DNA of 64,000 bases from the NCBI RefSeq assembly GCF_013122565.1, contig NZ_CP053258.1; one strand, 5' to 3'. The notes below the pieces were generated by a model. The model was not told where the DNA came from. It ran no database searches and saw only the letters and a list, made by a program, of their open reading frames with translations. The stretch's first letter is position 1. Each line of letters opens with the position of its first letter. Of this stretch, positions 2,825 to 19,814 are shown piece by piece. The position numbers and the translations under genes were made by a program. Source of the DNA: Escherichia coli. GTDB lineage: Bacteria > Pseudomonadota > Gammaproteobacteria > Enterobacterales > Enterobacteriaceae.

Positions 2825-3061
2825 GTTCCTGTTCTGTGCATCCCGTCACAAATTCCTCGCTTTTGTAATTCAGGCATTTAATCGCATTTTGTGAGCCTGC
2901 TCAAATCTGCCCATTTTGCCTCTCTGGCGGTAATTTACTTTACGTAAAACATGCATACTATGAGCACATGTTTAAATATGAACACATGTTTAAACCGTCT
3001 TTGCAGTATCTATATTCTTGTGGATTGACAGGGTTGGTAATTTTTTACCAGAGGACGTGCT

Positions 3062-4003
3062 ATGCGCGAAAAGGATTATGTCGTAATTATAGGTTCGGCG
3101 AATATTGATGTCGCCGGATATTCACATGAATCATTAAATTATGCGGATTCAAATCCAGGTAAAATAAAATTTACGCCTGGTGGAGTCGGGCGCAATATTG
3201 CACAAAACCTGGCGTTGCTGGGGAATAAAGCCTGGCTACTTAGCGCAGTAGGCAGTGATTTTTATGGTCAATCGTTGCTAACGCAAACCAATCAATCTGG
3301 TGTTTATGTCGATAAATGCCTGATTGTGCCGGGAGAAAATACGTCGAGCTATTTATCATTACTCGATAATACCGGTGAAATGCTGGTTGCTATAAATGAC
3401 ATGAATATTAGCAACGCTATTACAGCTGAATATCTCGCACAGCACCGTGAATTTATTCAGAGGGCAAAGGTCATTGTCGCGGACTGTAATATCAGTGAAG
3501 AGGCACTGGCATGGATTCTGGATAATGCCGCCAACGTACCCGTATTTGTCGATCCTGTTTCCGCGTGGAAATGTGTCAAAGTGCGCGACCGTCTAAATCA
3601 GATCCACACTCTCAAACCAAACCGCCTTGAAGCGGAAACCCTGAGTGGGATTGCGCTGTCAGGGCGTGCAGATGTGGCAAAAGTTGCTGCCTGGTTCCAT
3701 CAACATGGCCTGAACCGACTGGTATTGAGCATGGGCGGCGACGGCGTTTATTACAGCGATATCAGCGGTGAAAGTGGCTGGTCTGCGCCGATCAAAACCA
3801 ATGTCATTAATGTTACCGGAGCGGGCGATGCCATGATGGCGGGGCTTGCTTCGTGTTGGGTAGACGGAATGCCGTTTGCCGAATCTGTTCGTTTCGCACA
3901 GGGATGTTCGTCAATGGCGCTCTCCTGTGAATACACCAATAACCCCGATTTATCGATTGCCAACGTTATATCGTTAGTGGAGAACGCAGAATGTCTGAAT
4001 TAA
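3062..4003 (+). CDS. psuK: Pseudouridine kinase (PfkB family)
   Basis: 313-aa ORF MREKDYVVIIGSANIDV...; matches E. coli YeiC/PsuK; 13-nt overlap with psuG start. Confidence 0.92.
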   Translation: MREKDYVVIIGSANIDVAGYSHESLNYADSNPGKIKFTPGGVGRNIAQNLALLGNKAWLLSAVGSDFYGQSLLTQTNQSGVYVDKCLIVPGENTSSYLSLLDNTGEMLVAINDMNISNAITAEYLAQHREFIQRAKVIVADCNISEEALAWILDNAANVPVFVDPVSAWKCVKVRDRLNQIHTLKPNRLEAETLSGIALSGRADVAKVAAWFHQHGLNRLVLSMGGDGVYYSDISGESGWSAPIKTNVINVTGAGDAMMAGLASCWVDGMPFAESVRFAQGCSSMALSCEYTNNPDLSIANVISLVENAECLN

Positions 4004-4929
4004 AAATTTCCCCTGAATTATTACAAATTTCCCCGGAAGTGCAGGACGCTTTAAAAAACAAAAAACCGGTTGTGGCGCTGGAATCGACCATTATTTCTCA
4101 CGGGATGCCGTTCCCACAAAATGCCCAGACCGCAATTGAAGTTGAAGAAACTATTCGTAAACAGGGCGCAGTACCTGCCACTATCGCCATTATTGGTGGC
4201 GTGATGAAAGTGGGTTTAAGCAAAGAAGAAATTGAATTACTGGGTCGTGAAGGGCATAACGTGACTAAAGTTAGTCGTCGCGATTTACCTTTTGTCGTTG
4301 CCGCCGGAAAAAATGGCGCAACCACCGTGGCTTCAACGATGATTATTGCGGCGCTTGCCGGAATTAAAGTATTTGCCACCGGCGGAATTGGTGGTGTTCA
4401 TCGCGGGGCGGAACATACCTTCGATATTTCTGCCGATTTGCAAGAACTGGCAAATACTAATGTCACCGTTGTTTGTGCCGGGGCGAAATCTATTCTCGAT
4501 TTAGGCTTAACTACCGAATATTTAGAAACTTTCGGTGTACCGCTAATTGGCTATCAGACCAAAGCGTTGCCTGCGTTTTTCTGCCGCACCAGCCCGTTTG
4601 ACGTCAGCATTCGTCTCGACAGCGCCAGTGAAATTGCCCGTGCAATGGCGGTGAAATGGCAAAGCGGGCTGAACGGTGGCCTCGTGGTAGCGAACCCGAT
4701 CCCGGAACAGTTTGCGATGCCGGAACAGACCATTAACGCTGCGATTGATCAGGCAGTGGCAGAAGCCGAAGAACAGGGAGTCATTGGTAAAGAAAGTACG
4801 CCATTCCTGCTGGCGCGCGTTGCTGAGCTGACCGGCGGTGACAGCCTGAAATCCAACATCCAGCTGGTGTTCAACAACGCCATTCTGGCGAGCGAAATTG
4901 CCAAAGAATATCAGCGTCTCGCGGGTTAA
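3991..4929 (+). CDS. psuG: Pseudouridine-5'-phosphate glycosidase
   Basis: 312-aa ORF MSELKISPELLQISPEVQDALKNKKPVVALESTIISHGMPFP...; matches YeiN/PsuG. Confidence 0.92.
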   Translation: MSELKISPELLQISPEVQDALKNKKPVVALESTIISHGMPFPQNAQTAIEVEETIRKQGAVPATIAIIGGVMKVGLSKEEIELLGREGHNVTKVSRRDLPFVVAAGKNGATTVASTMIIAALAGIKVFATGGIGGVHRGAEHTFDISADLQELANTNVTVVCAGAKSILDLGLTTEYLETFGVPLIGYQTKALPAFFCRTSPFDVSIRLDSASEIARAMAVKWQSGLNGGLVVANPIPEQFAMPEQTINAAIDQAVAEAEEQGVIGKESTPFLLARVAELTGGDSLKSNIQLVFNNAILASEIAKEYQRLAG

Positions 4930-5022
4930 TTTCTGACGGGCAGAAAGCCGTCGCCCGTACTCATCAAGCATACCAAAACCTGGCGCTGACGCCGGGTTTA
5001 CTGGCATGAAGGGAAAATCATT

Positions 5023-6273
5023 ATGGATATAATGAGAAGTGTTGTGGGGATGGTGGTGTTACTGGCAATAGCATTTCTGTTGTCAGTGAATAAAAAGAGC
5101 ATCAGTTTGCGCACGGTTGGAGCCGCACTGCTGCTGCAAATCGCTATTGGTGGCATCATGCTCTACTTCCCACCGGGAAAATGGGCAGTAGAACAGGCGG
5201 CATTAGGCGTTCATAAAGTGATGTCTTACAGTGATGCCGGTAGCGCCTTTATTTTTGGTTCGCTGGTTGGGCCGAAAATGGATGTCCTGTTTGACGGTGC
5301 GGGTTTTATCTTCGCCTTTCGCGTACTTCCGGCGATTATCTTCGTCACTGCGCTCATTAGTCTGCTGTACTACATTGGCGTGATGGGGCTGCTGATTCGC
5401 ATCCTTGGCAGCATTTTCCAGAAAGCCCTCAACATCAGCAAAATCGAATCTTTTGTCGCAGTCACCACTATTTTCCTCGGGCAAAATGAGATCCCGGCGA
5501 TCGTTAAACCGTTTATCGATCGCATGAATCGCAACGAGTTGTTTACCGCAATTTGTAGCGGGATGGCGTCCATTGCTGGTTCGATGATGATTGGTTATGC
5601 CGGAATGGGCGTACCAATTGACTACCTGTTAGCGGCATCGCTGATGGCGATCCCCGGCGGTATTTTGTTTGCACGTATTCTTAGCCCGGCAACCGAGCCT
5701 TCGCAGGTCACATTTGAAAATCTGTCGTTCAGCGAAACGCCGCCAAAAAGCTTTATCGAAGCGGCGGCGAGCGGTGCGATGACCGGGCTGAAAATCGCCG
5801 CTGGTGTGGCGACGGTGGTCATGGCGTTTGTCGCAATTATTGCGCTGATCAACGGCATTATCGGCGGAATTGGCGGCTGGTTTGGTTTTGCCAATGCCTC
5901 TCTGGAAAGTATTTTTGGCTATGTGCTGGCACCGCTGGCGTGGATCATGGGTGTGGACTGGAGTGATGCCAATCTTGCGGGTAGCCTGATTGGGCAGAAA
6001 CTGGCGATTAACGAATTCGTCGCTTACCTGAGTTTCTCCCCATACCTGCAAACGGGCGGCACGCTGGAAGTGAAAACCATTGCGATTATCTCCTTTGCGC
6101 TTTGTGGTTTTGCTAACTTTGGTTCTATCGGTGTTGTCGTTGGCGCATTTTCGGCTATTTCGCCAAAACGTGCTCCGGAAATCGCTCAGCTTGGTTTACG
6201 GGCGCTGGCAGCAGCAACGCTTTCCAACCTGATGAGCGCGACTATTGCCGGGTTCTTTATTGGTTTAGCTTGA
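5023..6273 (+). CDS. psuT: NupC-family nucleoside transporter (putative pseudouridine transporter)
   Basis: 416-aa polytopic membrane ORF; matches YeiM/PsuT; close paralogue of nupX at 8210. Confidence 0.9.
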   Translation: MDIMRSVVGMVVLLAIAFLLSVNKKSISLRTVGAALLLQIAIGGIMLYFPPGKWAVEQAALGVHKVMSYSDAGSAFIFGSLVGPKMDVLFDGAGFIFAFRVLPAIIFVTALISLLYYIGVMGLLIRILGSIFQKALNISKIESFVAVTTIFLGQNEIPAIVKPFIDRMNRNELFTAICSGMASIAGSMMIGYAGMGVPIDYLLAASLMAIPGGILFARILSPATEPSQVTFENLSFSETPPKSFIEAAASGAMTGLKIAAGVATVVMAFVAIIALINGIIGGIGGWFGFANASLESIFGYVLAPLAWIMGVDWSDANLAGSLIGQKLAINEFVAYLSFSPYLQTGGTLEVKTIAIISFALCGFANFGSIGVVVGAFSAISPKRAPEIAQLGLRALAAATLSNLMSATIAGFFIGLA

Positions 6274-6340: not shown

Positions 6341-7000
6341 TTACTGCATCATCCCGGAGAATTTATTCTCCGGGTCCATCTCCAGCGCCAGTCCTGACAA
6401 CTGCTTTCTGTTTTTAATTAGATATCCTTTCTTGCTTTTAATTAATAAACCGTCGTGAATGAATTGTGCGAGAACATATAAAAGATGTCGATAAGAAACG
6501 CCTAAATACTCTGCCGCTTGCGTATGCTTTTCGTGATAAAGATCACCTTCTTGTGAGAGTAATATAAATGCTGCCAGGCGATTCACTAACGGAAATGATT
6601 GATTCTGAGTTAAAGAAACAATATTACGATAATTTTTATGACTTAAGGTGACGCAAAGTTTTCGTAAAAATAGGGTGTCGTTTAATAACAGCGGACGGTA
6701 ATGTTTCATAGGGAGCGCAAGGCACCAACACTCTTCAATAGCCTGTACCGCACGCGGTTCATGGTCTTTATCGATTAACTCAATCTCACCAATAAAACAG
6801 GGGGCGGCAAAGAAATCGATCAGCGACACGCGACCATTAGCTAGCGTGGCGTAAAGCCTGGCGCGGCCTCGCGTCAGGTAAAACAGCCAGGACGGCTGTT
6901 GCCCTTCCTGCACAATGTAGTCACGCGCTAAAAAATGAAACAGCCGCGTATCGGCTGAAACATCCGTTAAAAAGCAATCCTTAAACGCGGATTCACTCAT
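6341..7000 (-). CDS. yeiL: CRP/FNR-family transcriptional regulator YeiL
   Basis: ORF-track 6341..7039 begins at a GTG; internal ATG at 7000 gives the 219-aa protein [14 protein letters not shown]... matching YeiL. Confidence 0.88.
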
Positions 7001-7168
7001 CAATTGCTGCTTAAGATCATTATTGTGGATTTCTTTCACGATGTTTATCCGCTATGAGATTTCTCATATTTAGCATACGTACGCTGTTGTTAAGATTCAA
7101 TCATCGGCCCGATCGAAATTTCTTTGCTGTAGAAAAAATAACGCAACTGGAAACAGAGGAAATAAACA

Positions 7169-8110
7169 ATGGAAAAGAGAAAAATTATTCTGGATTGTGA
7201 TCCGGGTCATGATGATGCTATTGCTATAATGATGGCGGCGAAACATCCGGCAATAGATTTATTAGGCATCACTATTGTAGCGGGTAATCAGACGCTTGAT
7301 AAAACATTAATTAATGGCCTGAATGTTTGCCAGAAACTGGAGATTAATGTTCCGGTTTATGCGGGGATGCCACAACCCATTATGCGGCAACAAATCGTTG
7401 CCGATAATATTCACGGTGATACCGGACTGGATGGCCCGGTATTCGAGCCGCTGACCCGCCAGGCAGAAAGCACTCATGCGGTGAAATACATCATTGATAC
7501 CCTGATGGCAAGCGATGGCGATATCACTCTGGTGCCGGTTGGTCCGCTTTCAAATATCGCGGTGGCAATGCGTATGCAACCCGCGATCCTGCCCAAAATC
7601 CGTGAAATTGTGCTAATGGGCGGCGCTTACGGTACAGGCAACTTCACGCCATCTGCCGAGTTCAACATCTTTGCTGACCCGGAAGCCGCACGCGTGGTGT
7701 TCACCTCCGGCGTTCCATTAGTGATGATGGGCCTCGATCTTACCAACCAGACCGTTTGCACCCCGGACGTGATTGCACGAATGGAAAGGGCAGGCGGCCC
7801 TGCCGGAGAGCTGTTCAGCGACATCATGAACTTCACTCTCAAAACCCAGTTCGAAAACTACGGCCTGGCTGGCGGCCCGGTGCACGACGCCACCTGCATC
7901 GGTTATCTGATTAACCCTGATGGCATTAAAACCCAGGAGATGTACGTCGAAGTGGACGTCAACAGTGGCCCTTGCTATGGGCGTACCGTCTGCGACGAGC
8001 TGGGCGTTCTTGGCAAGCCCGCTAATACCAAAGTCGGCATCACTATTGATACCGACTGGTTCTGGGGCTTAGTCGAAGAGTGCGTGCGCGGCTACATCAA
8101 AACCCATTAA
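7169..8110 (+). CDS. rihB: Pyrimidine-specific ribonucleoside hydrolase
   Basis: 313-aa ORF with N-terminal DCDPGHDD nucleoside-hydrolase motif; matches RihB/YeiK. Confidence 0.93.
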
Positions 8111-8209
8111 GTGTTGATAACAAGCCGGGTCAGTATCGCAAGATGCAGGCCCGGCTATTTCTGAGGGGCAGAAAGCCGTCGCCCAATATGACATGAAGAG
8201 ATAATCACT

Positions 8210-9460
8210 ATGGATGTCATGAGAAGTGTTCTGGGAATGGTGGTATTGCTGACGATTGCGTTTTTACTGTCAGTAAACAAGAAGAAGATCAGCCTGCGTA
8301 CCGTTGGCGCGGCGTTAGTGTTACAGGTCGTGATTGGCGGCATTATGCTTTGGTTACCGCCAGGGCGTTGGGTCGCTGAAAAAGTCGCTTTTGGCGTGCA
8401 TAAAGTGATGGCGTACAGCGACGCGGGTAGCGCATTTATCTTCGGTTCTCTGGTCGGACCGAAAATGGACACCTTATTTGATGGCGCAGGATTTATCTTT
8501 GGTTTCAGGGTGTTACCGGCAATTATCTTCGTCACCGCGCTGGTGAGTATTCTCTACTACATCGGTGTGATGGGGATCTTAATTCGCATTCTCGGCGGTA
8601 TCTTCCAGAAAGCATTAAATATCAGCAAGATCGAGTCATTCGTCGCGGTCACTACCATTTTCCTCGGGCAAAACGAAATTCCGGCGATCGTCAAACCCTT
8701 TATCGATCGTCTGAATCGCAATGAATTATTTACAGCGATTTGTAGTGGCATGGCCTCGATTGCTGGTTCGACAATGATTGGTTACGCCGCGCTGGGCGTG
8801 CCTGTGGAATATCTGCTGGCGGCATCATTAATGGCGATCCCTGGCGGGATCTTGTTTGCCCGCCTGTTAAGCCCGGCAACGGAATCTTCGCAGGTTTCCT
8901 TTAATAACCTCTCTTTCACCGAAACACCGCCAAAAAGCATTATTGAAGCCGCTGCGACAGGGGCAATGACCGGGCTGAAAATCGCCGCAGGTGTGGCGAC
9001 AGTAGTGATGGCATTTGTCGCCATCATTGCGTTAATTAACGGTATTATCGGCGGCGTTGGCGGCTGGTTTGATTTTGAACATGCCTCGCTGGAATCCATT
9101 TTAGGTTACCTGCTGGCCCTACTGGCGTGGGTGATGGGTGTTGACTGGAGTGATGCGAATCTTGCCGGGAGTTTGATTGGTCAGAAACTGGCAATAAATG
9201 AATTTGTCGCTTATCTCAATTTCTCACCCTATCTGCAAACAGCTGGCACTCTCGATGTTAAAACTGTGGCGATTATTTCCTTCGCGTTGTGCGGTTTCGC
9301 TAACTTTGGTTCTATCGGGGTAGTGGTGGGGGCGTTTTCTGCGGTTGCGCCACACCGCGCGCCGGAAATCGCCCAGCTTGGTTTACGTGCGCTGGCGGCG
9401 GCGACACTTTCTAACCTGATGAGCGCTACCATTGCCGGATTCTTTATTGGTTTAGCGTAG
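8210..9460 (+). CDS. nupX: NupC-family nucleoside permease
   Basis: 416-aa ORF, highly similar along its length to psuT; matches NupX/YeiJ. Confidence 0.9.
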   Translation: MDVMRSVLGMVVLLTIAFLLSVNKKKISLRTVGAALVLQVVIGGIMLWLPPGRWVAEKVAFGVHKVMAYSDAGSAFIFGSLVGPKMDTLFDGAGFIFGFRVLPAIIFVTALVSILYYIGVMGILIRILGGIFQKALNISKIESFVAVTTIFLGQNEIPAIVKPFIDRLNRNELFTAICSGMASIAGSTMIGYAALGVPVEYLLAASLMAIPGGILFARLLSPATESSQVSFNNLSFTETPPKSIIEAAATGAMTGLKIAAGVATVVMAFVAIIALINGIIGGVGGWFDFEHASLESILGYLLALLAWVMGVDWSDANLAGSLIGQKLAINEFVAYLNFSPYLQTAGTLDVKTVAIISFALCGFANFGSIGVVVGAFSAVAPHRAPEIAQLGLRALAAATLSNLMSATIAGFFIGLA

Positions 9461-9474
9461 CGCGCAATTTATGA

Positions 9475-9508
9475 GCCGGATAAGATGCGGTCAAGCGTCG
9501 AATCCGGC
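9475..9508. repeat. REP-like palindrome between convergent nupX and yeiI
   Basis: gccggataagatgcgg ... gaatccggc inverted repeat. Confidence 0.5.
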
Positions 9509-9515
9509 AACATTG

Positions 9516-10604
9516 TTACACCATTGGCACTAATGAAAGCGCGTTATCGGCAGACAGGGTAGGGTTGTTTAAGCTGCCGCTGGCGCGTGAAATTGCCGCG
9601 CAGGCCATCGCAAAACGGGCGCTGTCACGGAAATTGTTTCCCTCCAGAAAGCTATATACCAGGCCCGCCATAAAACCATCGTCAGCACCAAAACTGTCTA
9701 CTGTCGTATGCGCTGGTGCGGTCAGCAAAAATTGTTCTCCATCCTTTTCGCTGCAATAAACTGACTCATCGGGCAAATAAACAAACAGTTGCTGAACACC
9801 TTGCTGATGCAACGCATTCACTGCGGCATTACGGTCAACATCGCTGGTGATCGCCTGTCCCCATAAAATTTCCAGCTCCGGTAAAGTGGGTTTCAGGGTA
9901 TGAATATGCGCCAGCCAGTGTTTGATTTTGCCCGCTTTGAATTCTGAAACGGTATCGACAAACACCGGGATCTCATCAGCGAGGGTAAAGACCCATTCCA
10001 GCGCCTCGGCTGTCAGGTTGCAATCAGCCAGTACCACGCCCGCATGACGAAGTAAATCGCGCGACCCGTTCAGTAGTTGCGGTGTCAACTGTTCCAGCAG
10101 ATGGGTATCGTTAATCGCCAGCACGGTTTGATCGTCTCGATTGGCAATTGCCAGATACGTCGATGTGCTTTGACCATGCAAACGAACGCAGCCGGAGACA
10201 TTCACGCCGGCACGGCGCGTTTCTTCCAGGAGCATTTCGCCATAAAAGTCATCGCCAATCACTGAAAGCAAATGGACGTCGCGGCCTAACAGCGCCAGAT
10301 TGTGGGCGATATTGCGTCCAACGCCGCCCGCCGAGCAATGAATTGTACCGGGATGAGAAGCCGCTTGCGGGTAACGGATATCCGCCATCCCGCGAATATC
10401 CATATTGATTGTCCCCACCACTACGCAGTATTCCTGCTCGGTGAGAATGTAACCTTTGCCTTTAATCCGGCCTTTGCGCATTAAATCCATAATATGCGCC
10501 GCAACGCGCGAACGACTGATTTGCAGCATGTCCGCAATTTCGTTCTGCTGAATCAGCGGGTTACGCCGTAAAATTGCAAGGATCTCCTTTTCCCGGTTAT
10601 TCAT
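9516..10604 (-). CDS. yeiI: HTH-fused PfkB-family carbohydrate/nucleoside kinase (uncharacterised)
   Basis: 362-aa ORF: N-terminal winged-HTH-like segment (MNNREKEILAILRRNPLIQQNEIADMLQISRSRV) fused to a PfkB kinase domain paralogous to psuK; matches YeiI. Confidence 0.88.
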   Translation of the reverse strand: MNNREKEILAILRRNPLIQQNEIADMLQISRSRVAAHIMDLMRKGRIKGKGYILTEQEYCVVVGTINMDIRGMADIRYPQAASHPGTIHCSAGGVGRNIAHNLALLGRDVHLLSVIGDDFYGEMLLEETRRAGVNVSGCVRLHGQSTSTYLAIANRDDQTVLAINDTHLLEQLTPQLLNGSRDLLRHAGVVLADCNLTAEALEWVFTLADEIPVFVDTVSEFKAGKIKHWLAHIHTLKPTLPELEILWGQAITSDVDRNAAVNALHQQGVQQLFVYLPDESVYCSEKDGEQFLLTAPAHTTVDSFGADDGFMAGLVYSFLEGNNFRDSARFAMACAAISRASGSLNNPTLSADNALSLVPMV

Positions 10605-10606
10605 CT

Positions 10607-11464
10607 TCAGGCTACCGCTTTTTCAGTTTGTTGCGCTTTCAGCCAGGCGATCTCTTCTGCCCAGATATCCGGGTTGATGGTTTCAAGGATCAGCGGAATG
10701 CCGTCGAAACGGTCATCCTGCATGATCCAGCGGAACGCATCATGACCGATATTGCCTTCACCGAGGCTATGATGGCGGTCAACGCGGCTGCCAAAGGTGC
10801 TTTTCGCATCGTTAAGGTGCATCCCGCGCAGATACTTAAAGCCGACAATACGGGCAAAATCAGCGAACGTTTTCTCGCATTCGGCTGGAGTACGCAAATC
10901 ATACCCGGCAGCGAAAGCATGGCAGGTATCAATGCAGACGCCGACACGGGATTTATCTTCCACGCCGTCGATAATTGCCGCGAGATGTTCGAATTTAAAC
11001 CCTAAGTTACTACCCTGACCGGCGGTGTTTTCAATCACCGCGGTCACACCTTGAGTTTTATCCAGCGCAATGTTGATGGATTCGGCAATACGCGCAAGGC
11101 AATCCTCTTCTGAAATCTGCATCAGATGGCTGCCAGGGTGGAAGTTGAGCAAAGAAAGCTCCAGCTGTTCGCAACGCTGCATTTCATCTATAAAGGCATC
11201 GCGCGATTTTTCCAGAGCTTCAGTGACCGGATGTCCGAGGTTAATCAGATAGCTGTCGTGGGGAAGAATTTGCGCCGATGTGTAGTGATATTTTTCACAG
11301 GCGGCTTTGAATTCATCGATGGTTTGCGTCGTGAGCGGTGCGGCACGCCACTGACGTTGGTTTTTGGTGAACAAGGCAAACGCGGTTGCGTCGATTTCGG
11401 CGGCGCGAATTGCGGCATTTGCCAGACCGCCAGCAGCACTAACGTGCGCTCCAATGTATTTCAT
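10607..11464 (-). CDS. nfo: Endonuclease IV (AP endonuclease)
   Basis: 285-aa [24 protein letters not shown]...; matches Nfo; 2-nt gap to yeiI downstream on the same strand. Confidence 0.95.
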
Positions 11465-11537
11465 GCGAGGACTCCTGTTAAACCCGCTGGAGGAAAACGG
11501 TAATGATAGCGGGTTAACAGGAGCAAGATGTAGTGGT

Positions 11538-12587
11538 TTATGCGATGACGCTTTGAATCACATAGTTAATCGCACCACCACCAACAATCAGCCAGGCAAA
11601 CAGTACCAGTGCCATCAGCAGAGGTTTCGCCCCGGCTTTTTTCAGCGCGCTGACGTGAGTGGTCAGACCCAGCGCCGCCATCGCCATTGCCAGCAGGAAG
11701 GTATCCAGCGTTACCAGCATGTTCACCACGCTCTGCGGTAACAGGTGGAACGAGTTAAAGATGGCAACTACGATGAACAAGATGGCAAACCACGGAATAG
11801 TGATTTTGCTTTTCTCGCCGCTGTTCGCCCCAGACAGCTGTTTAACACGCGCCGCCAGCAGGATGAGGAACGGAGCCAGCATCATCACGCGCAGCATTTT
11901 GGAAATAACTGCTGCGTTTTCCGCATCCGGGCTGATGGCATGACCTGCCGCCACCACCTGCGCCACTTCGTGCACAGTAGAACCAATGTAGATACCGAAA
12001 GTTTCCGGACTAAACCATTGAGACATCAGCGGATATATCGCCGGGTAGAGGAAAATCGCGACGGTCCCGAAGATAACAACGGTTGCAACAGCCACGGTTA
12101 CTTTACTGGCTTCCGCTTTCACTACCGGCTCAGTCGCCAGTACCGCGGCAGCACCACAGATACTGCTACCGGCACCGATCAACCAGCTGGTGTGCTTATC
12201 CAGACCAAACACTTTCTGTCCCAGGAAGCAAGCCAGCAGGAAGGTACTGGACAGCGTCAACACGTCAATGATGATCCCACTGATACCGACATCGGCAATT
12301 TGCGAGAACGTCAGACGGAAGCCATAAAGAATGATACCCAGACGTAATAAATATTGCTTGGCAAACAGCACACCACCGTCACAGCTTTTCCAGATGTGCG
12401 GATAGATGGTGTTGCCTAAAACCATCCCCAACAAAATTGCGAGGGTGAGGGCACTAAACCCGGCACCCGCAACCGCGGGAATGGAACCACCCCACAGGGC
12501 GACCCCGGTGATAACTGCACTCAGGGCTAACCCCGGAATAAAATGCCACAGTGTACGATGTTGTTTCTGTAAGGTGATATTCGTCAT
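11538..12587 (-). CDS. yeiH: UPF0324 inner-membrane protein YeiH
   Basis: 349-aa polytopic membrane ORF matching YeiH; divergent from the LysR-type gene yeiE. Confidence 0.9.
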
Positions 12588-12640
12588 AACCCTCTCCTTT
12601 ATCCGGGCATAAGGTTACGACTAACTGGTTTAAAAATAAA

Positions 12641-12664
12641 ATTGATTATATATTTATAATCAAT
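12641..12664. promoter_or_regulatory. Perfect 24-bp palindrome in the yeiH/yeiE divergent promoter (putative LysR-type YeiE operator)
   Basis: ATTGATTATA-tatt-TATAATCAAT, 10-bp perfect arms; contains TATAAT hexamers on both strands; 22 nt upstream of the yeiE ATG. Confidence 0.45.
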
Positions 12665-12685
12665 CTTTATAAGTGGTAAGCGACT

Positions 12686-13567
12686 ATGCACATCACCCTC
12701 CGGCAGTTGGAAGTTTTTGCAGAAGTATTGAAAAGTGGATCAACCACCCAGGCGTCGGTGATGCTGGCGTTGTCGCAATCAGCAGTGAGCGCAGCCTTGA
12801 CCGACCTGGAAGGGCAGCTTGGCGTTCAACTGTTTGATCGCGTGGGGAAAAGACTGGTTGTTAATGAACACGGGCGGCTGCTCTATCCGCGTGCGTTGGC
12901 ACTGCTTGAACAGGCGGTTGAAATCGAACAACTGTTTCGTGAAGACAACGGCGCGATTCGTATCTATGCCAGTAGTACCATCGGTAACTACATTCTGCCT
13001 GCAGTCATTGCCCGTTATCGCCATGATTATCCGCAGTTGCCGATTGAACTTAGCGTTGGGAACAGCCAGGACGTGATGCAAGCGGTACTGGATTTCCGCG
13101 TTGATATTGGCTTTATTGAAGGACCGTGCCACAGCACTGAAATCATTTCTGAACCGTGGCTGGAAGACGAGCTGGTGGTTTTCGCCGCGCCGACTTCGCC
13201 GTTGGCCCGTGGTCCGGTCACCTTAGAACAGCTGGCCGCTGCGCCGTGGATCCTGCGTGAACGCGGTTCCGGCACGCGAGAGATTGTCGATTATCTGTTG
13301 CTGTCACATTTACCGAAGTTTGAGATGGCGATGGAATTAGGTAACTCCGAGGCAATCAAACATGCGGTGCGTCATGGGTTGGGAATTAGTTGCCTGTCGC
13401 GACGGGTGATTGAAGATCAATTGCAGGCAGGCACATTAAGTGAAGTTGCGGTCCCTCTGCCGCGCCTGATGCGTACGTTGTGGCGTATACATCATCGGCA
13501 AAAACACCTTTCCAACGCGCTACGGCGCTTCCTGGACTATTGCGATCCCGCGAATGTCCCGCGTTAA
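12686..13567 (+). CDS. yeiE: LysR-family transcriptional regulator YeiE
   Basis: 293-aa ORF with N-terminal LysR HTH ([42 protein letters not shown]); matches YeiE. Confidence 0.92.
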
Positions 13568-17571: not shown

Positions 17572-18894
17572 TTATAACCGATGAAATTTTGCCAGTAAGG
17601 CCAGTGAAAATGTTGTCAGCAAAATGGTAATGACGGCGTAAATATACACGCCTGACCATTCCCAACTGTTTTTCACCATAATAACTGGAAGCCCTGCCAT
17701 TGCCGCGCCTACATAACTAAATAAGCCCCTGAACCCAGTAATGGAACCTGCCGCATCTTTATGCGTAACATCAAGACATCCGACAGCGAATAACATATGT
17801 GGTCCATATAATGCAAACCCCATGATTGTAAAAAGAATAGCCGTTAATGTGTAGGAGACGTCCTGCACCAGCGGCACGAGAACGATGCAAATACATAAGG
17901 CGATGGCAAACATTAATCCGGTCATCCAGCGGTTACTTTTAAACATAAAATCGGACAAGTACCCCGCCAGTAATCCCCCTGCAAGTCCACCTGCTTCAAA
18001 CCAGGATATAATGGAGTTCGCTTTAATCAGGCTCCAGTTATGAACCTGAGAATAATAAATTTGTGGCCAGTCATTGAGGATGGTGCGTGCAATATAGACT
18101 GACATATCCCCGAGGATAATCAGCCAAACTAATGGGTTGGTAAGAATATATTTAATGAAAATTTGCCAAAAACTCAGATCTACCGGGCTTGCTTTAACTT
18201 GTGCAAGTTCTGTCGGGTCGTTGCGCCACTTACCTACGTTAGGCAAACCGAGTGTGCCAGGACGATCTTTAATCGTAAACAGGGCAACAACCCCCATAAT
18301 CAGCGATATTACACCCGGAACATAAAAGCCCATTTTCCAGCTGCCACTAAAAGCAATGGCAAAGCTTGTCAGGAGAGGCGCAAGACTACCGCCAATATTA
18401 TGCGCCGCTTCAACAACTGCCCACCAGCGCCCGCGTTCATTTTTAGAAAACCACGAGGCCATAATTTTTGCCATCGGCGGAAAACTGGTACCCTGAAGAA
18501 TAGCATTAAGGCTATACAGGATATAGAACGCAGCAACGCTGTCTGAAAAACCGAAAAGAATGTTAACAATACCGACGCCAATAAGTACGGGGCCGGTCAT
18601 TGCGCGTGGGTTAATTTTATCGACTAACATGCCCCCTACAAACTTCATGGAGCCATAAAGAATGTAAAAGACCGACGACATGATAGCGAAATCTTGTGCG
18701 GTTAATGACGTATCCGTCAACATCGCCGGCATGGCCGCAGAGAAATTCTTGCGGGTTAAATAAAATACGGCATAAGAGATAAATACAGAGGTGATGATTT
18801 CAATACGAAATTTTTTATAAGTATGATCAACTTCTTCTTTCGGTTTGACCACTGGTTGGTCGGCCTGGCTGAAAATAAATTTTTTCAAGCTCAT
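17572..18894 (-). CDS. Organophosphate:phosphate antiporter family MFS transporter (GlpT/UhpT/PgtP-like); accessory
   Basis: 440-aa 12-TM ORF; N-terminal VDHTYKKFRIEII and YLTRKNF, WFSKNERGRWWAVVEAAHNIGG and YGPHMLF closely parallel GlpT/PgtP signature regions recalled from E. coli/Salmonella; RBS aaggaaa before the ATG. Confidence 0.8.
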   Translation of the reverse strand: MSLKKFIFSQADQPVVKPKEEVDHTYKKFRIEIITSVFISYAVFYLTRKNFSAAMPAMLTDTSLTAQDFAIMSSVFYILYGSMKFVGGMLVDKINPRAMTGPVLIGVGIVNILFGFSDSVAAFYILYSLNAILQGTSFPPMAKIMASWFSKNERGRWWAVVEAAHNIGGSLAPLLTSFAIAFSGSWKMGFYVPGVISLIMGVVALFTIKDRPGTLGLPNVGKWRNDPTELAQVKASPVDLSFWQIFIKYILTNPLVWLIILGDMSVYIARTILNDWPQIYYSQVHNWSLIKANSIISWFEAGGLAGGLLAGYLSDFMFKSNRWMTGLMFAIALCICIVLVPLVQDVSYTLTAILFTIMGFALYGPHMLFAVGCLDVTHKDAAGSITGFRGLFSYVGAAMAGLPVIMVKNSWEWSGVYIYAVITILLTTFSLALLAKFHRL

Positions 18895-18926
18895 CGTGAG
18901 TTTCCTTTTCTGTGAACCTTATGGTG

Positions 18927-19814
18927 CTATAGTTTTTCTTCTATAAAAAAGAGAAGCGACTCGAAACCATTAAAATTAATCTGGTTAGTAACTTTTTCCC
19001 GGGTTTTAGGTTTTGCTTTCCATGCCACGCCATACCCGGCATGCAGAAGCATAGGAATATCATTAGCGCCATCTCCGCAGGCAATGATGTTTTCACGACA
19101 AATAGATAACTCTGTCGCCAAATTTATCAGGGTTTGCTTTTTCTTTTCTGCATTCATAATGGGAAAGGTAATTTTGTCAGTTAATAGATCTTCCTGAATG
19201 CGTACAGAGTTAGAAAATGCAAAATCAAGTTGATATTTTTCTTTTAATCTCTCAGTAAAAATATCTAAACCGCCGGATATAATTGCCGTCTTGAATCCTT
19301 TTTCTTTAAGAATGGGAAGAATAGTTTTAAGACCTGGTGAAAGGGTCATCTGTTCACAAACCTGATGCAATATATCTTTATGTGTTCCTTTAAGCATGCC
19401 AATTCGGCGGGTAAAACTGGTATCAAAATCGATTTTTCCTTCCATCGCTTCACGGGTCAGCGCGGTGATTTTTTCAGAGATCCCGAGTCTACGGGCTATT
19501 TCATCGACGCCTTCCTCTTCAACAAAGGTGGAATCCATATCAAAGGCAATAATTCCCTCAGCCGGTAAGTCCGTAGGTTTGCGGAAAAAATCAAAATGAT
19601 GATGATCAGCACGGTGACGTAAACCAGCATAAAAATCAGGATTGGTTACATCATCTGTTAATACTAGCTTTAGATACTCTTTATTTATTTGCTCACTGTA
19701 ATTCGTTGTTAACGAAAACACCGAGGATGAAACCTTTAAATGTTGCAAATAATGTTCCAGACATTTTTTGGTGATGTCGATGCCTGTTGGCGACAAGAAA
19801 TAAATAATCGTCAT
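18927..19814 (-). CDS. Phosphoserine-phosphatase-like HAD hydrolase (SerB paralogue); accessory
   Basis: 295-aa ORF with HAD motif I FDMDSTF, EAMEGKIDFDTSFTRRIGMLKG and GDGANDIPML...AWKAKPK closely paralleling E. coli SerB catalytic-domain motifs; no signal peptide. Confidence 0.8.
   Translation of the reverse strand: MTIIYFLSPTGIDITKKCLEHYLQHLKVSSSVFSLTTNYSEQINKEYLKLVLTDDVTNPDFYAGLRHRADHHHFDFFRKPTDLPAEGIIAFDMDSTFVEEEGVDEIARRLGISEKITALTREAMEGKIDFDTSFTRRIGMLKGTHKDILHQVCEQMTLSPGLKTILPILKEKGFKTAIISGGLDIFTERLKEKYQLDFAFSNSVRIQEDLLTDKITFPIMNAEKKKQTLINLATELSICRENIIACGDGANDIPMLLHAGYGVAWKAKPKTREKVTNQINFNGFESLLFFIEEKL

Follow-up and report, generated by a model that had tools for sequence, protein, structure and literature searches.

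YeiI of Escherichia coli, a pseudouridine kinase paralogue with a winged helix-turn-helix domain, as a probable repressor of the psuKGT operon

The DNA analysed here (the window) was a 64,000-nucleotide segment of an Escherichia coli chromosome (RefSeq assembly GCF_013122565.1, contig NZ_CP053258.1), with a best database match of 98.8% identity over 6 kb. The genes fruK-fruA, psuK, psuG, psuT, yeiL, rihB, nupX, yeiI, nfo, yeiH, yeiE, lysP and cirA were present in this order, and RefSeq gives the open reading frames (ORFs) the same names in E. coli DNA that is nearly identical. The subject of the study was yeiI, whose product combines a winged helix-turn-helix (HTH) domain with a PfkB-type kinase domain and whose function was listed as unknown in 2022 and in 2025 (PMC9061257, PMC12506659). 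The features around this gene were as follows, with positions in the window.

3062-4003, plus strand: psuK, encoding a protein without HTH, identified from the ORF list and RefSeq naming
3991-4929, plus strand: psuG, encoding pseudouridine-5'-phosphate glycosidase, an Indigoidine_A protein
5023-6273, plus strand: psuT, third gene of psuK-psuG-psuT
3062-6273, plus strand: psuKGT operon for pseudouridine catabolism, the proposed target of YeiI
6341-7039, minus strand: yeiL, encoding a CRP/FNR-type protein
7169-8110, plus strand: rihB, encoding RihB, an IU_nuc_hydro protein
8210-9460, plus strand: nupX, encoding NupX, a CNT transporter
9516-10604, minus strand: yeiI, encoding a 362-residue protein with winged HTH and PfkB domains
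10443-10604, minus strand: winged HTH of yeiI, codons 1-54, with helices 3-14 and 20-27, recognition helix 31-43 and wing 47-54
9561-10433, minus strand: PfkB domain of yeiI, codons 58-348
10607-11464, minus strand: nfo, encoding endonuclease IV

The genes nupX and yeiI were convergent, as an earlier note on this DNA had described, with a gap of 55 bp between them. Residues 1-48 of YeiI matched the Pfam family HTH_24 (E 1.2e-10, 41.2 bits against a gathering cut-off of 21.9) and residues 58-348 matched PfkB, PF00294 (E 4.5e-67). No ROK domain (PF00480) was among the Pfam hits. Identity to PsuK was 40% over 307 residues (E 1e-77). The earlier note had read YeiI as a PsuK paralogue with an N-terminal HTH segment, and both the domain search and the alignment bore this out. 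Public annotation and a catalogue of transcription factors predicted for E. coli (PMC6055005) already contain the fusion. YeiI passed its own NCBIfam equivalog NF007416/PRK09954 'sugar kinase' with 812 bits (cut-off 561) and failed the pseudouridine kinase equivalog NF007355 with 256.6 bits (cut-off 540).

A structural model was calculated with AlphaFold2 from an alignment of 77 sequences, with a predicted local distance difference test score (pLDDT) of 90.9 and a predicted template modelling score of 0.84. The single-sequence AlphaFold2 model was discarded (pLDDT 38.9). In the retained model, three helices and a beta-hairpin wing preceded the kinase fold, with pLDDT values of 78-92 in the helices, and the N-terminal region was thereby predicted to have the DNA-binding fold that the earlier note had assumed. 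Among solved structures, Foldseek placed the model closest to E. coli pseudouridine kinase (PDB 7VKP, 7VTD, 7VVA), at template modelling (TM) scores of 0.94-0.95 and a root-mean-square deviation of approximately 2 Å; across PDB pseudouridine kinase and ribokinases, TM scores were 0.85-0.95. No solved chain spanning both domains was found in the Foldseek search of the PDB. At the sequence level, the HTH domain matched solved HTH proteins (GerE, LrpA, HlyU) only weakly, and it was the only HTH of its type in the window. Across Enterobacteriaceae, YeiI was intact and conserved with a nearly invariant HTH; identity to the E. coli protein was 70-85% for YeiI and 74-87% for PsuK.

The surroundings of YeiI homologues were compared at 10 loci obtained by exact-protein look-up and 80 loci from a scan of one genome per species. 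Outside E. coli, 19 loci carried yeiI together with an HTH-less psuK, and in these yeiI was convergent on, and directly adjoining, psuT of psuK-psuG-psuT. Seventeen of the 19 loci belonged to Enterobacteriaceae. The taxa were Escherichia albertii, Citrobacter (seven species), Enterobacter, Klebsiella michiganensis, Leclercia, Buttiauxella, Phytobacter, [Enterobacter] lignolyticus, Salmonella, two Enterobacteriaceae metagenome-assembled genomes, Affinibrenneria and a divergent metagenomic contig, L091. The gene nfo adjoined yeiI in most Enterobacteriaceae; in Salmonella (L007), Affinibrenneria (L009) and L091 it was not adjacent, and psuKGT was still beside yeiI. All yeiI-type loci had yeiI on the opposite strand, convergent to psuKGT, and a separate HTH-less psuK in the operon. 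Location in the same operon as psuG, which would mark a pseudouridine kinase gene, was not found for yeiI.

A different arrangement was shown by approximately 65 HTH-PfkB genes outside the yeiI group, which were essentially all of the homologues retrieved there. They were the first gene of an operon, with psuG immediately next and often a CNT transporter gene after it. They occurred in Gamma- and Betaproteobacteria and in other phyla: Yersinia, Serratia, Hafnia, Photorhabdus, Xenorhabdus, Gilliamella, Pasteurellaceae, Shewanella, Ferrimonas, Vibrio, Aeromonas, Chromobacteriaceae, Spirochaetes and Clostridia. Their products kept the PsuK motifs DSNPGK, LKPNRLEAE (containing NXXE), S-M-G-x-x-G and TGAGDAMMAG, and their kinase domains were 54-61% identical to E. 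coli PsuK. Since they are the sole kinases of their operons, they are presumed to be the pseudouridine kinases of their hosts, and they are annotated just as 'PfkB family carbohydrate kinase' or 'winged helix-turn-helix regulator'. The HTH signature ISRSxVAxHIM...KGxIKGKGYIL, which covers the recognition helix and the wing, was near-invariant between YeiI and these operon-encoded proteins. Xenorhabdus had two HTH-fused pseudouridine kinase paralogues per chromosome, both with canonical motifs, of 363 residues (P0085 type) and 355 residues (P0098 type); the first was followed by psuG and then psuT (L004, CP147734.1).

A palindrome AAACA-NN-TGTTT, in extended form cAAACA-NN-TGTTTg, was found upstream of the operons with HTH-fused psuK and upstream of HTH-less psuK in yeiI-bearing genomes. 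Perfect matches to AAACANNTGTTT numbered 30 in the fetched loci, 27 of them within 350 bp upstream of psu operons, which accounted for 1.9% of the 1.58 Mb. With a position weight matrix (PWM), 121 of 144 sites scoring at least 12 were located in psu upstream regions and 75 of 87 loci had at least one site; these PWM counts are partly circular, because the matrix was trained on the same upstream regions, which applies neither to the consensus count nor to the E. coli hold-out. Sites were usually paired, 18-19 bp apart. The distance to the start codon was 15-60 bp for the operon-encoded HTH-psuK form; in most yeiI-bearing genomes the operator was approximately 55-120 bp from the psuK ATG, and in Affinibrenneria 266 bp.

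A PWM trained without E. coli placed its two best positions of the 64 kb at 2976-2995 (16.8) and 2958-2977 (11.9), both at the psuK promoter. It gave no operator-like site at yeiL-rihB, rihB-nupX, nupX-yeiI, the nfo upstream region or yeiH-yeiE; upstream of rihB, nupX, nfo and yeiE no score reached 0, compared with 16.8 at psuK. Over the whole window, plain AAACANNTGTTT with one mismatch was no commoner than expected (3 sites against 3.07), and position and PWM rank were the informative features. In Aeromonas, a different recognition helix, ISRSALASHISSL, went with a variant site, ACAAACGTTTGT, and a changed geometry. The motif was absent from two HTH-less psuKGT loci that had no yeiI-type gene in their 8-kb flanks (best PWM scores 2.7 and 3.3). 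The shared helix and wing, the co-variation in Aeromonas and the lack of the motif where no yeiI-type gene is near tie the palindrome to the YeiI-type HTH, of which it is the predicted operator.

A recurrent operator-like sequence AT(A/T)TGAACAACTGTTTATTT was observed in an unassigned stretch approximately 4 kb beyond psuK in three other loci (L010, 18719-18738; L020, 18701-18720; L014, 18746-18765). It scored 16.5-17.4 in L010 and L020, and in L010 it lay 5' of fruB, in the gap that separates this gene from a divergent MFS gene. This site near fruB may be due to chance or may mark a second target of the regulator; the E. coli fruB promoter lies outside the window.

The two E. coli sites belonged to the following elements upstream of psuK.

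2962-2973: predicted operator O1, GAGCACATGTTT, about the psuK transcription start; PWM 11.9, second best in the window; conserved block
2980-2991: predicted operator O2, GAACACATGTTT, 18 bp from O1; PWM 16.8, best in the window; conserved
2890-2905, plus strand: CRP-like site TGTGA-N6-TCAAA, approximately 70 bp upstream of the predicted transcription start
2934-2961, plus strand: predicted psuKGT core promoter, with -35 TTTACT at 2934-2939, a 16-bp spacer and -10 TACTAT at 2956-2961

The psuK promoter was placed by phylogenetic footprinting. An alignment of psuK upstream regions from nine enterobacterial species had only five conserved blocks, namely the CRP-like TGTGA-N6-TCAxA, TTTACT, TACTAT and, directly after these, O1 and O2. 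Within it, TTTAC.TT and TA...T were invariant, and the CRP-like block was invariant in nine regions. The assignment of 2890-2905 to CRP was made by consensus, and similar sites were seen by eye upstream in Yersinia and Xenorhabdus. Simple sigma-70 and terminator scans performed at chance level and did not call the footprinted promoter; the sigma-70 scan gave TTTAAA-16-TATATT at 2989-3016 instead. The operators overlap the promoter under either choice. The predicted layout is that of a promoter which CRP activates and a repressor blocks.

The kinase domain was compared with E. coli pseudouridine kinase (EcPUKI, PsuK), whose pseudouridine-contacting residues are N14, D16, S30, Y97, N112, N143, K170 and the catalytic D256 (PMC9061257). 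Hallmarks of pseudouridine kinases are Ser/Thr30, Asn143 and Lys170 as nucleobase contacts and Asn14, Asp16 and Asp256 as ribose ligands (PMC9061257). YeiI had the equivalents N67, D69, S83, Y150, N165, N196, K223 and D309, and the pocket residues were kept in 49-50 of 50 YeiI-clade sequences (98-100%). The catalytic motifs were changed. In YeiI, NXXE was replaced by TLPE (T240), the S-M-G-G-D-G ATP loop by Y-L-P-D-E-S (276-281), GAGD by GADD (D308) and a leucine by R340. Of the PfkB catalytic motifs NXXE, T/S-x-G-x-x-G loop and GAGD, only the Glu and the final Asp remained. The altered motifs were found in 46-49 of the 50 clade members. The substitutions, numbered as in PsuK, were as follows.

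Asn187 to Thr: NXXE motif
Ser223 to Cys/Tyr: nucleotide loop
Gly225 to Glu/Lys/Asp/Pro: nucleotide loop
Gly226 to Asp: nucleotide loop
Thr252 to Phe: adjoins the anion hole
Gly255 to Asp: anion hole, GAGD to GADD
Leu287 to Arg
Asp29 to Ala/Ser: substrate-binding loop His22-Pro32
Met114 to Thr: lines uracil
Lys34 to variable residues

The catalytic Asp was also gone in the two most basal clade members, with GADE in the Affinibrenneria protein (P0059) and GIDN, without NXXE, in P0106. Both retained the HTH and the place beside an HTH-less psuKGT, and paired operators were retained in L091, the locus of P0106. Retention of the ligand pocket and the HTH, together with remodelling of the ATP site, is the pattern expected of an enzyme turned sensor, in which kinase activity would have been lost. 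Because the pocket and the HTH are kept and the motifs for ATP and phosphoryl transfer are remodelled, YeiI is predicted to sense pseudouridine and not to phosphorylate it efficiently. The clade-wide changes argue against a straightforward kinase; the suggestion of a DNA-binding regulator in the earlier note is probably correct. In the curators' statement as cited in PMC12506659, a psuK mutant is unable to use pseudouridine; on the strength of that statement, YeiI does not replace PsuK in vivo.

From these comparisons, YeiI is probably, though well short of certainly, a repressor of psuKGT that responds to pseudouridine and a sensor derived from a kinase. In the proposed mechanism, YeiI would dimerise through its beta-clasp small domains, like PsuK, and the two winged HTH domains would bind O1 and O2 and occlude the psuK transcription start. 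Pseudouridine would enter the conserved pocket, where Ser83 (Ser30 in EcPUKI) would contact N1 of the base and trigger domain closure. Pseudouridine-induced domain closure is documented for EcPUKI crystal structures (PMC9061257). Closure of the beta-clasp dimer would re-orient the HTH domains, the DNA would be released and CRP-cAMP would then drive psuKGT. Breitman reportedly observed in 1970 that growth on pseudouridine was restricted to mutants with raised pseudouridylate-synthetase activity. Mutants of this type could be yeiI or operator mutants.

Several points weigh against the repressor model. Enterobacterial YeiI still has the catalytic Asp and the NXXE Glu, and GADD is conserved, which is not random decay; YeiI may therefore have some catalytic activity left, or an altered one. 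The link between the operator and the YeiI HTH is a comparative one. Two yeiI-bearing loci were poor in sites, with none in L019 and scores of only 9-11 in L012. In E. coli, YeiL could also act on these promoters. Finally, the nfo stop codon TGA is 2 nt from the yeiI ATG (window 10602-10609), a gap small enough to make co-transcription of nfo and yeiI in E. coli likely. The gene nfo is a member of the SoxRS regulon, and a pseudouridine regulator on this oxidative-stress transcript has no explanation in the repressor model.

The conserved residues also suit a bifunctional YeiI, which would regulate psuKGT and at the same time be an active kinase; its substrate would be pseudouridine, with changed kinetics or another phosphate donor, or a related modified nucleoside. 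D309 was kept in 49 and E243 in 47 of 50 clade members, T240 was conserved like GADD rather than decaying, and specificity could be retuned by the changes M114T, D29A/S and K34x in the pocket. Within Enterobacteriaceae, divergence of the kinase-like domain is similar to that of PsuK, and a double function would match the role presumed for the HTH-fused kinases of other bacteria. However, four separate elements are changed together, namely the Asn of NXXE, the S-x-G-G-x-G loop, the Gly of the anion hole and Leu287; the catalytic Asp is missing from the basal clade members, the neighbouring genes always include one for a dedicated PsuK, and a psuK mutant reportedly fails to use pseudouridine (PMC12506659, as cited there). 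The bifunctional protein was considered unlikely.

Less probable still, at a low level, was a palindrome read by another factor, with YeiI regulating unrelated genes, for example nfo and the oxidative stress response, or being a decaying paralogue. The comparative nature of the link between palindrome and YeiI, the probable transcript shared with nfo and the truncated YeiI of some E. coli lineages (P0027 with 289 residues, P0055 with 260 residues) would fit this. On the other side, the motif follows HTH-PfkB proteins through phyla whose loci have no other regulator in common, varies together with the HTH in Aeromonas and is missing where no yeiI-type gene is nearby, and the near-invariant HTH of an intact YeiI throughout Enterobacteriaceae does not point to decay.

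The earlier note had placed YeiI elsewhere, as kinase and regulator of a second salvage pathway with rihB and nupX that mirrors psuK-psuG-psuT. A hydrolase, a transporter and a PfkB protein do occur twice in the window, and NupX is a paralogue of PsuT as YeiI is of PsuK; the two hydrolases, however, are from unrelated families (IU_nuc_hydro and Indigoidine_A). The genes yeiL-rihB-nupX (6341-9460) between psuT and yeiI were seen only in E. coli and were absent from E. albertii (L013) and all other non-E. coli yeiI loci examined. NupX orthologues with at least 93% identity were found only from E. coli/Shigella. Identity between NupX and PsuT was 88% for amino acids, 78% for DNA and 51% at third codon positions, and NupX branched basal to all enterobacterial PsuT. 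A recent duplication of psuT within E. coli was ruled out as the source of nupX by the third-position identity and the basal branching. Judged from these values, NupX is an old or foreign PsuT paralogue; no donor lineage was found. Since the block and the NupX orthologues are confined in this way, the mirror arrangement appears to result from an insertion, specific to E. coli, in a psuKGT/yeiI locus that is older. RihB-type IU_nuc_hydro enzymes act on nucleosides without prior phosphorylation, unlike PsuG, and an N-ribohydrolase needs no kinase. Against adjacency in E. coli and paralogy stand 19 yeiI loci without rihB, nupX and yeiL, negative PWM scores at rihB, nupX and nfo, a hydrolase without need of a kinase and the altered ATP motifs of YeiI, and a role in a rihB-nupX pathway is very improbable. 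With psuKGT as the partner and the operator at psuK, binding of YeiI at the rihB/nupX and nfo-yeiI promoters, which the earlier note had proposed to examine, is predicted to be negative. As written, that note's finding was mostly known annotation combined with a mis-assigned partner.

Further observations concerned the neighbourhood of these genes. The nupX-yeiI gap contained a REP-like hairpin GCCGGAT...ATCCGGC at 9475-9508 (-21.9 kcal/mol, z -3.5), which is probably a bidirectional terminator or mRNA stabiliser. The fruA-psuK spacer of 423 bp had two G+C-rich hairpins that resemble each other, GGGCAGA...TCTGCCC with a T-run after each, at 2652-2677 and 2794-2817. The first is likely the fruA terminator; the second was isolated, approximately 140 bp 5' of the psuK promoter, and other Enterobacteriaceae have one hairpin. 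Past cirA, at 17572-19814, genes for an MFS transporter (440 residues) and a HAD-family hydrolase (295 residues) were present, both on the minus strand; they form a strain-variable insertion, since the closest reference strain has yeiG there. The locus at 7000-13000 is unusually polymorphic within E. coli: identity of at least 99% was shown by only 2 of 5,431 matching E. coli records, and approximately 2,400 had just 90-95%.

The origin of YeiI was addressed with bootstrapped neighbour-joining trees. The YeiI clade was monophyletic with 98-99% bootstrap support. Enterobacterial HTH-less PsuK was also monophyletic (92%) and grouped with HTH-PsuK of Enterobacterales and Pasteurellales, excluding YeiI, with 75%. 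Because the HTH-less kinases overall were not monophyletic, the HTH appears to have been lost repeatedly. No decayed HTH-coding remnant was found upstream of E. coli psuK, where the best hit had an E value of 0.076 and was on the wrong strand. The ancestral state may have been an HTH-fused pseudouridine kinase, encoded first in psuK-psuG(-psuT) and autoregulating through one or two cAAACA-NN-TGTTTg palindromes. In Enterobacteriaceae, the two jobs would then have come to rest on two proteins, the HTH-less catalytic PsuK and the HTH-bearing sensor YeiI. On this basis YeiI is proposed, tentatively and with somewhat more doubt than confidence, as the founding PfkB-derived pseudokinase transcription factor, the ancestral HTH-kinase/autorepressor, which would persist widely from Proteobacteria to Spirochaetes and Clostridia, having split in Enterobacteriaceae into PsuK and YeiI with a shared operator. 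Two points temper this: the tree is neighbour-joining only and its key grouping has just 75% support, and duplication with domain partition is one scenario beside another, acquisition of a divergent HTH-PsuK.

In the searchable literature, RegPrecise not covered, neither an HTH-PfkB or other PfkB-family transcription factor nor regulation of psuKGT was found described. YeiI shares with E. coli PsuK/PUKI (YeiC) the PfkB fold, 40% identity and all pseudouridine-contacting residues; it differs in the extra winged HTH, the changed NXXE, ATP-loop and GAGD motifs and a gene convergent to the psuG operon instead of inside it. With the operon-first HTH-fused pseudouridine kinases it has in common the two-domain architecture, the near-identical HTH signature and the same palindrome by the psu operon. 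Unlike YeiI, these proteins have canonical motifs and are the sole kinase of the operon, presumably as bifunctional enzyme-regulators, whereas YeiI is paired with a separate HTH-less PsuK.

The ROK repressors NagC, Mlc and XylR consist of an N-terminal winged HTH and a sugar-kinase-like sensor domain. YeiI resembles them in the proposed use of a kinase fold as an effector-binding domain behind an HTH, controlling catabolic genes for the ligand. The ROK fold is actin-like ATPase, unlike the PfkB ribokinase fold of YeiI, which is an analogue and not a relative. Regulators that are bifunctional or derived from enzymes also include the Nudix-related NrtR (PMC2330246) and RbkR, an archaeal riboflavin kinase/regulator (PMC5397151). 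As proposed for YeiI, an enzyme-type domain in NrtR, RbkR, BirA and NadR is a metabolite sensor, fused to a winged HTH that acts on pathway operators; the enzyme fold and pathway of YeiI are unrelated to theirs. These four regulators were first recognised through comparative genomics.

The proposal provides yeiI, a y-gene of E. coli K-12 still called uncharacterised (PMC9061257, PMC12506659), with a concrete function that can be tested cheaply. It would also account for the disagreement between machine-learning calls of YeiI as 'pseudouridine kinase' and the genetics, as the ligand pocket is PsuK-like and the catalytic apparatus is not. Strains have been engineered to produce pseudouridine for mRNA therapeutics (PMC10552469, PMC13090712). 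If the proposal is true, the pseudouridine factor/operator pair would be a ready biosensor for such production strains, and yeiI would be a candidate there for knockout or tuning. For bacterial pseudouridine catabolism, it predicts a first regulator, operator and promoter logic, in which a CRP-like site is combined with a pseudouridine-responsive repressor, and HTH-fused kinase/regulators are predicted to form a large family that spans phyla and has gone unrecognised. Within this family, the pair of PsuK and YeiI would, if the reading is true, be a clean natural case of subfunctionalisation by domain partition.

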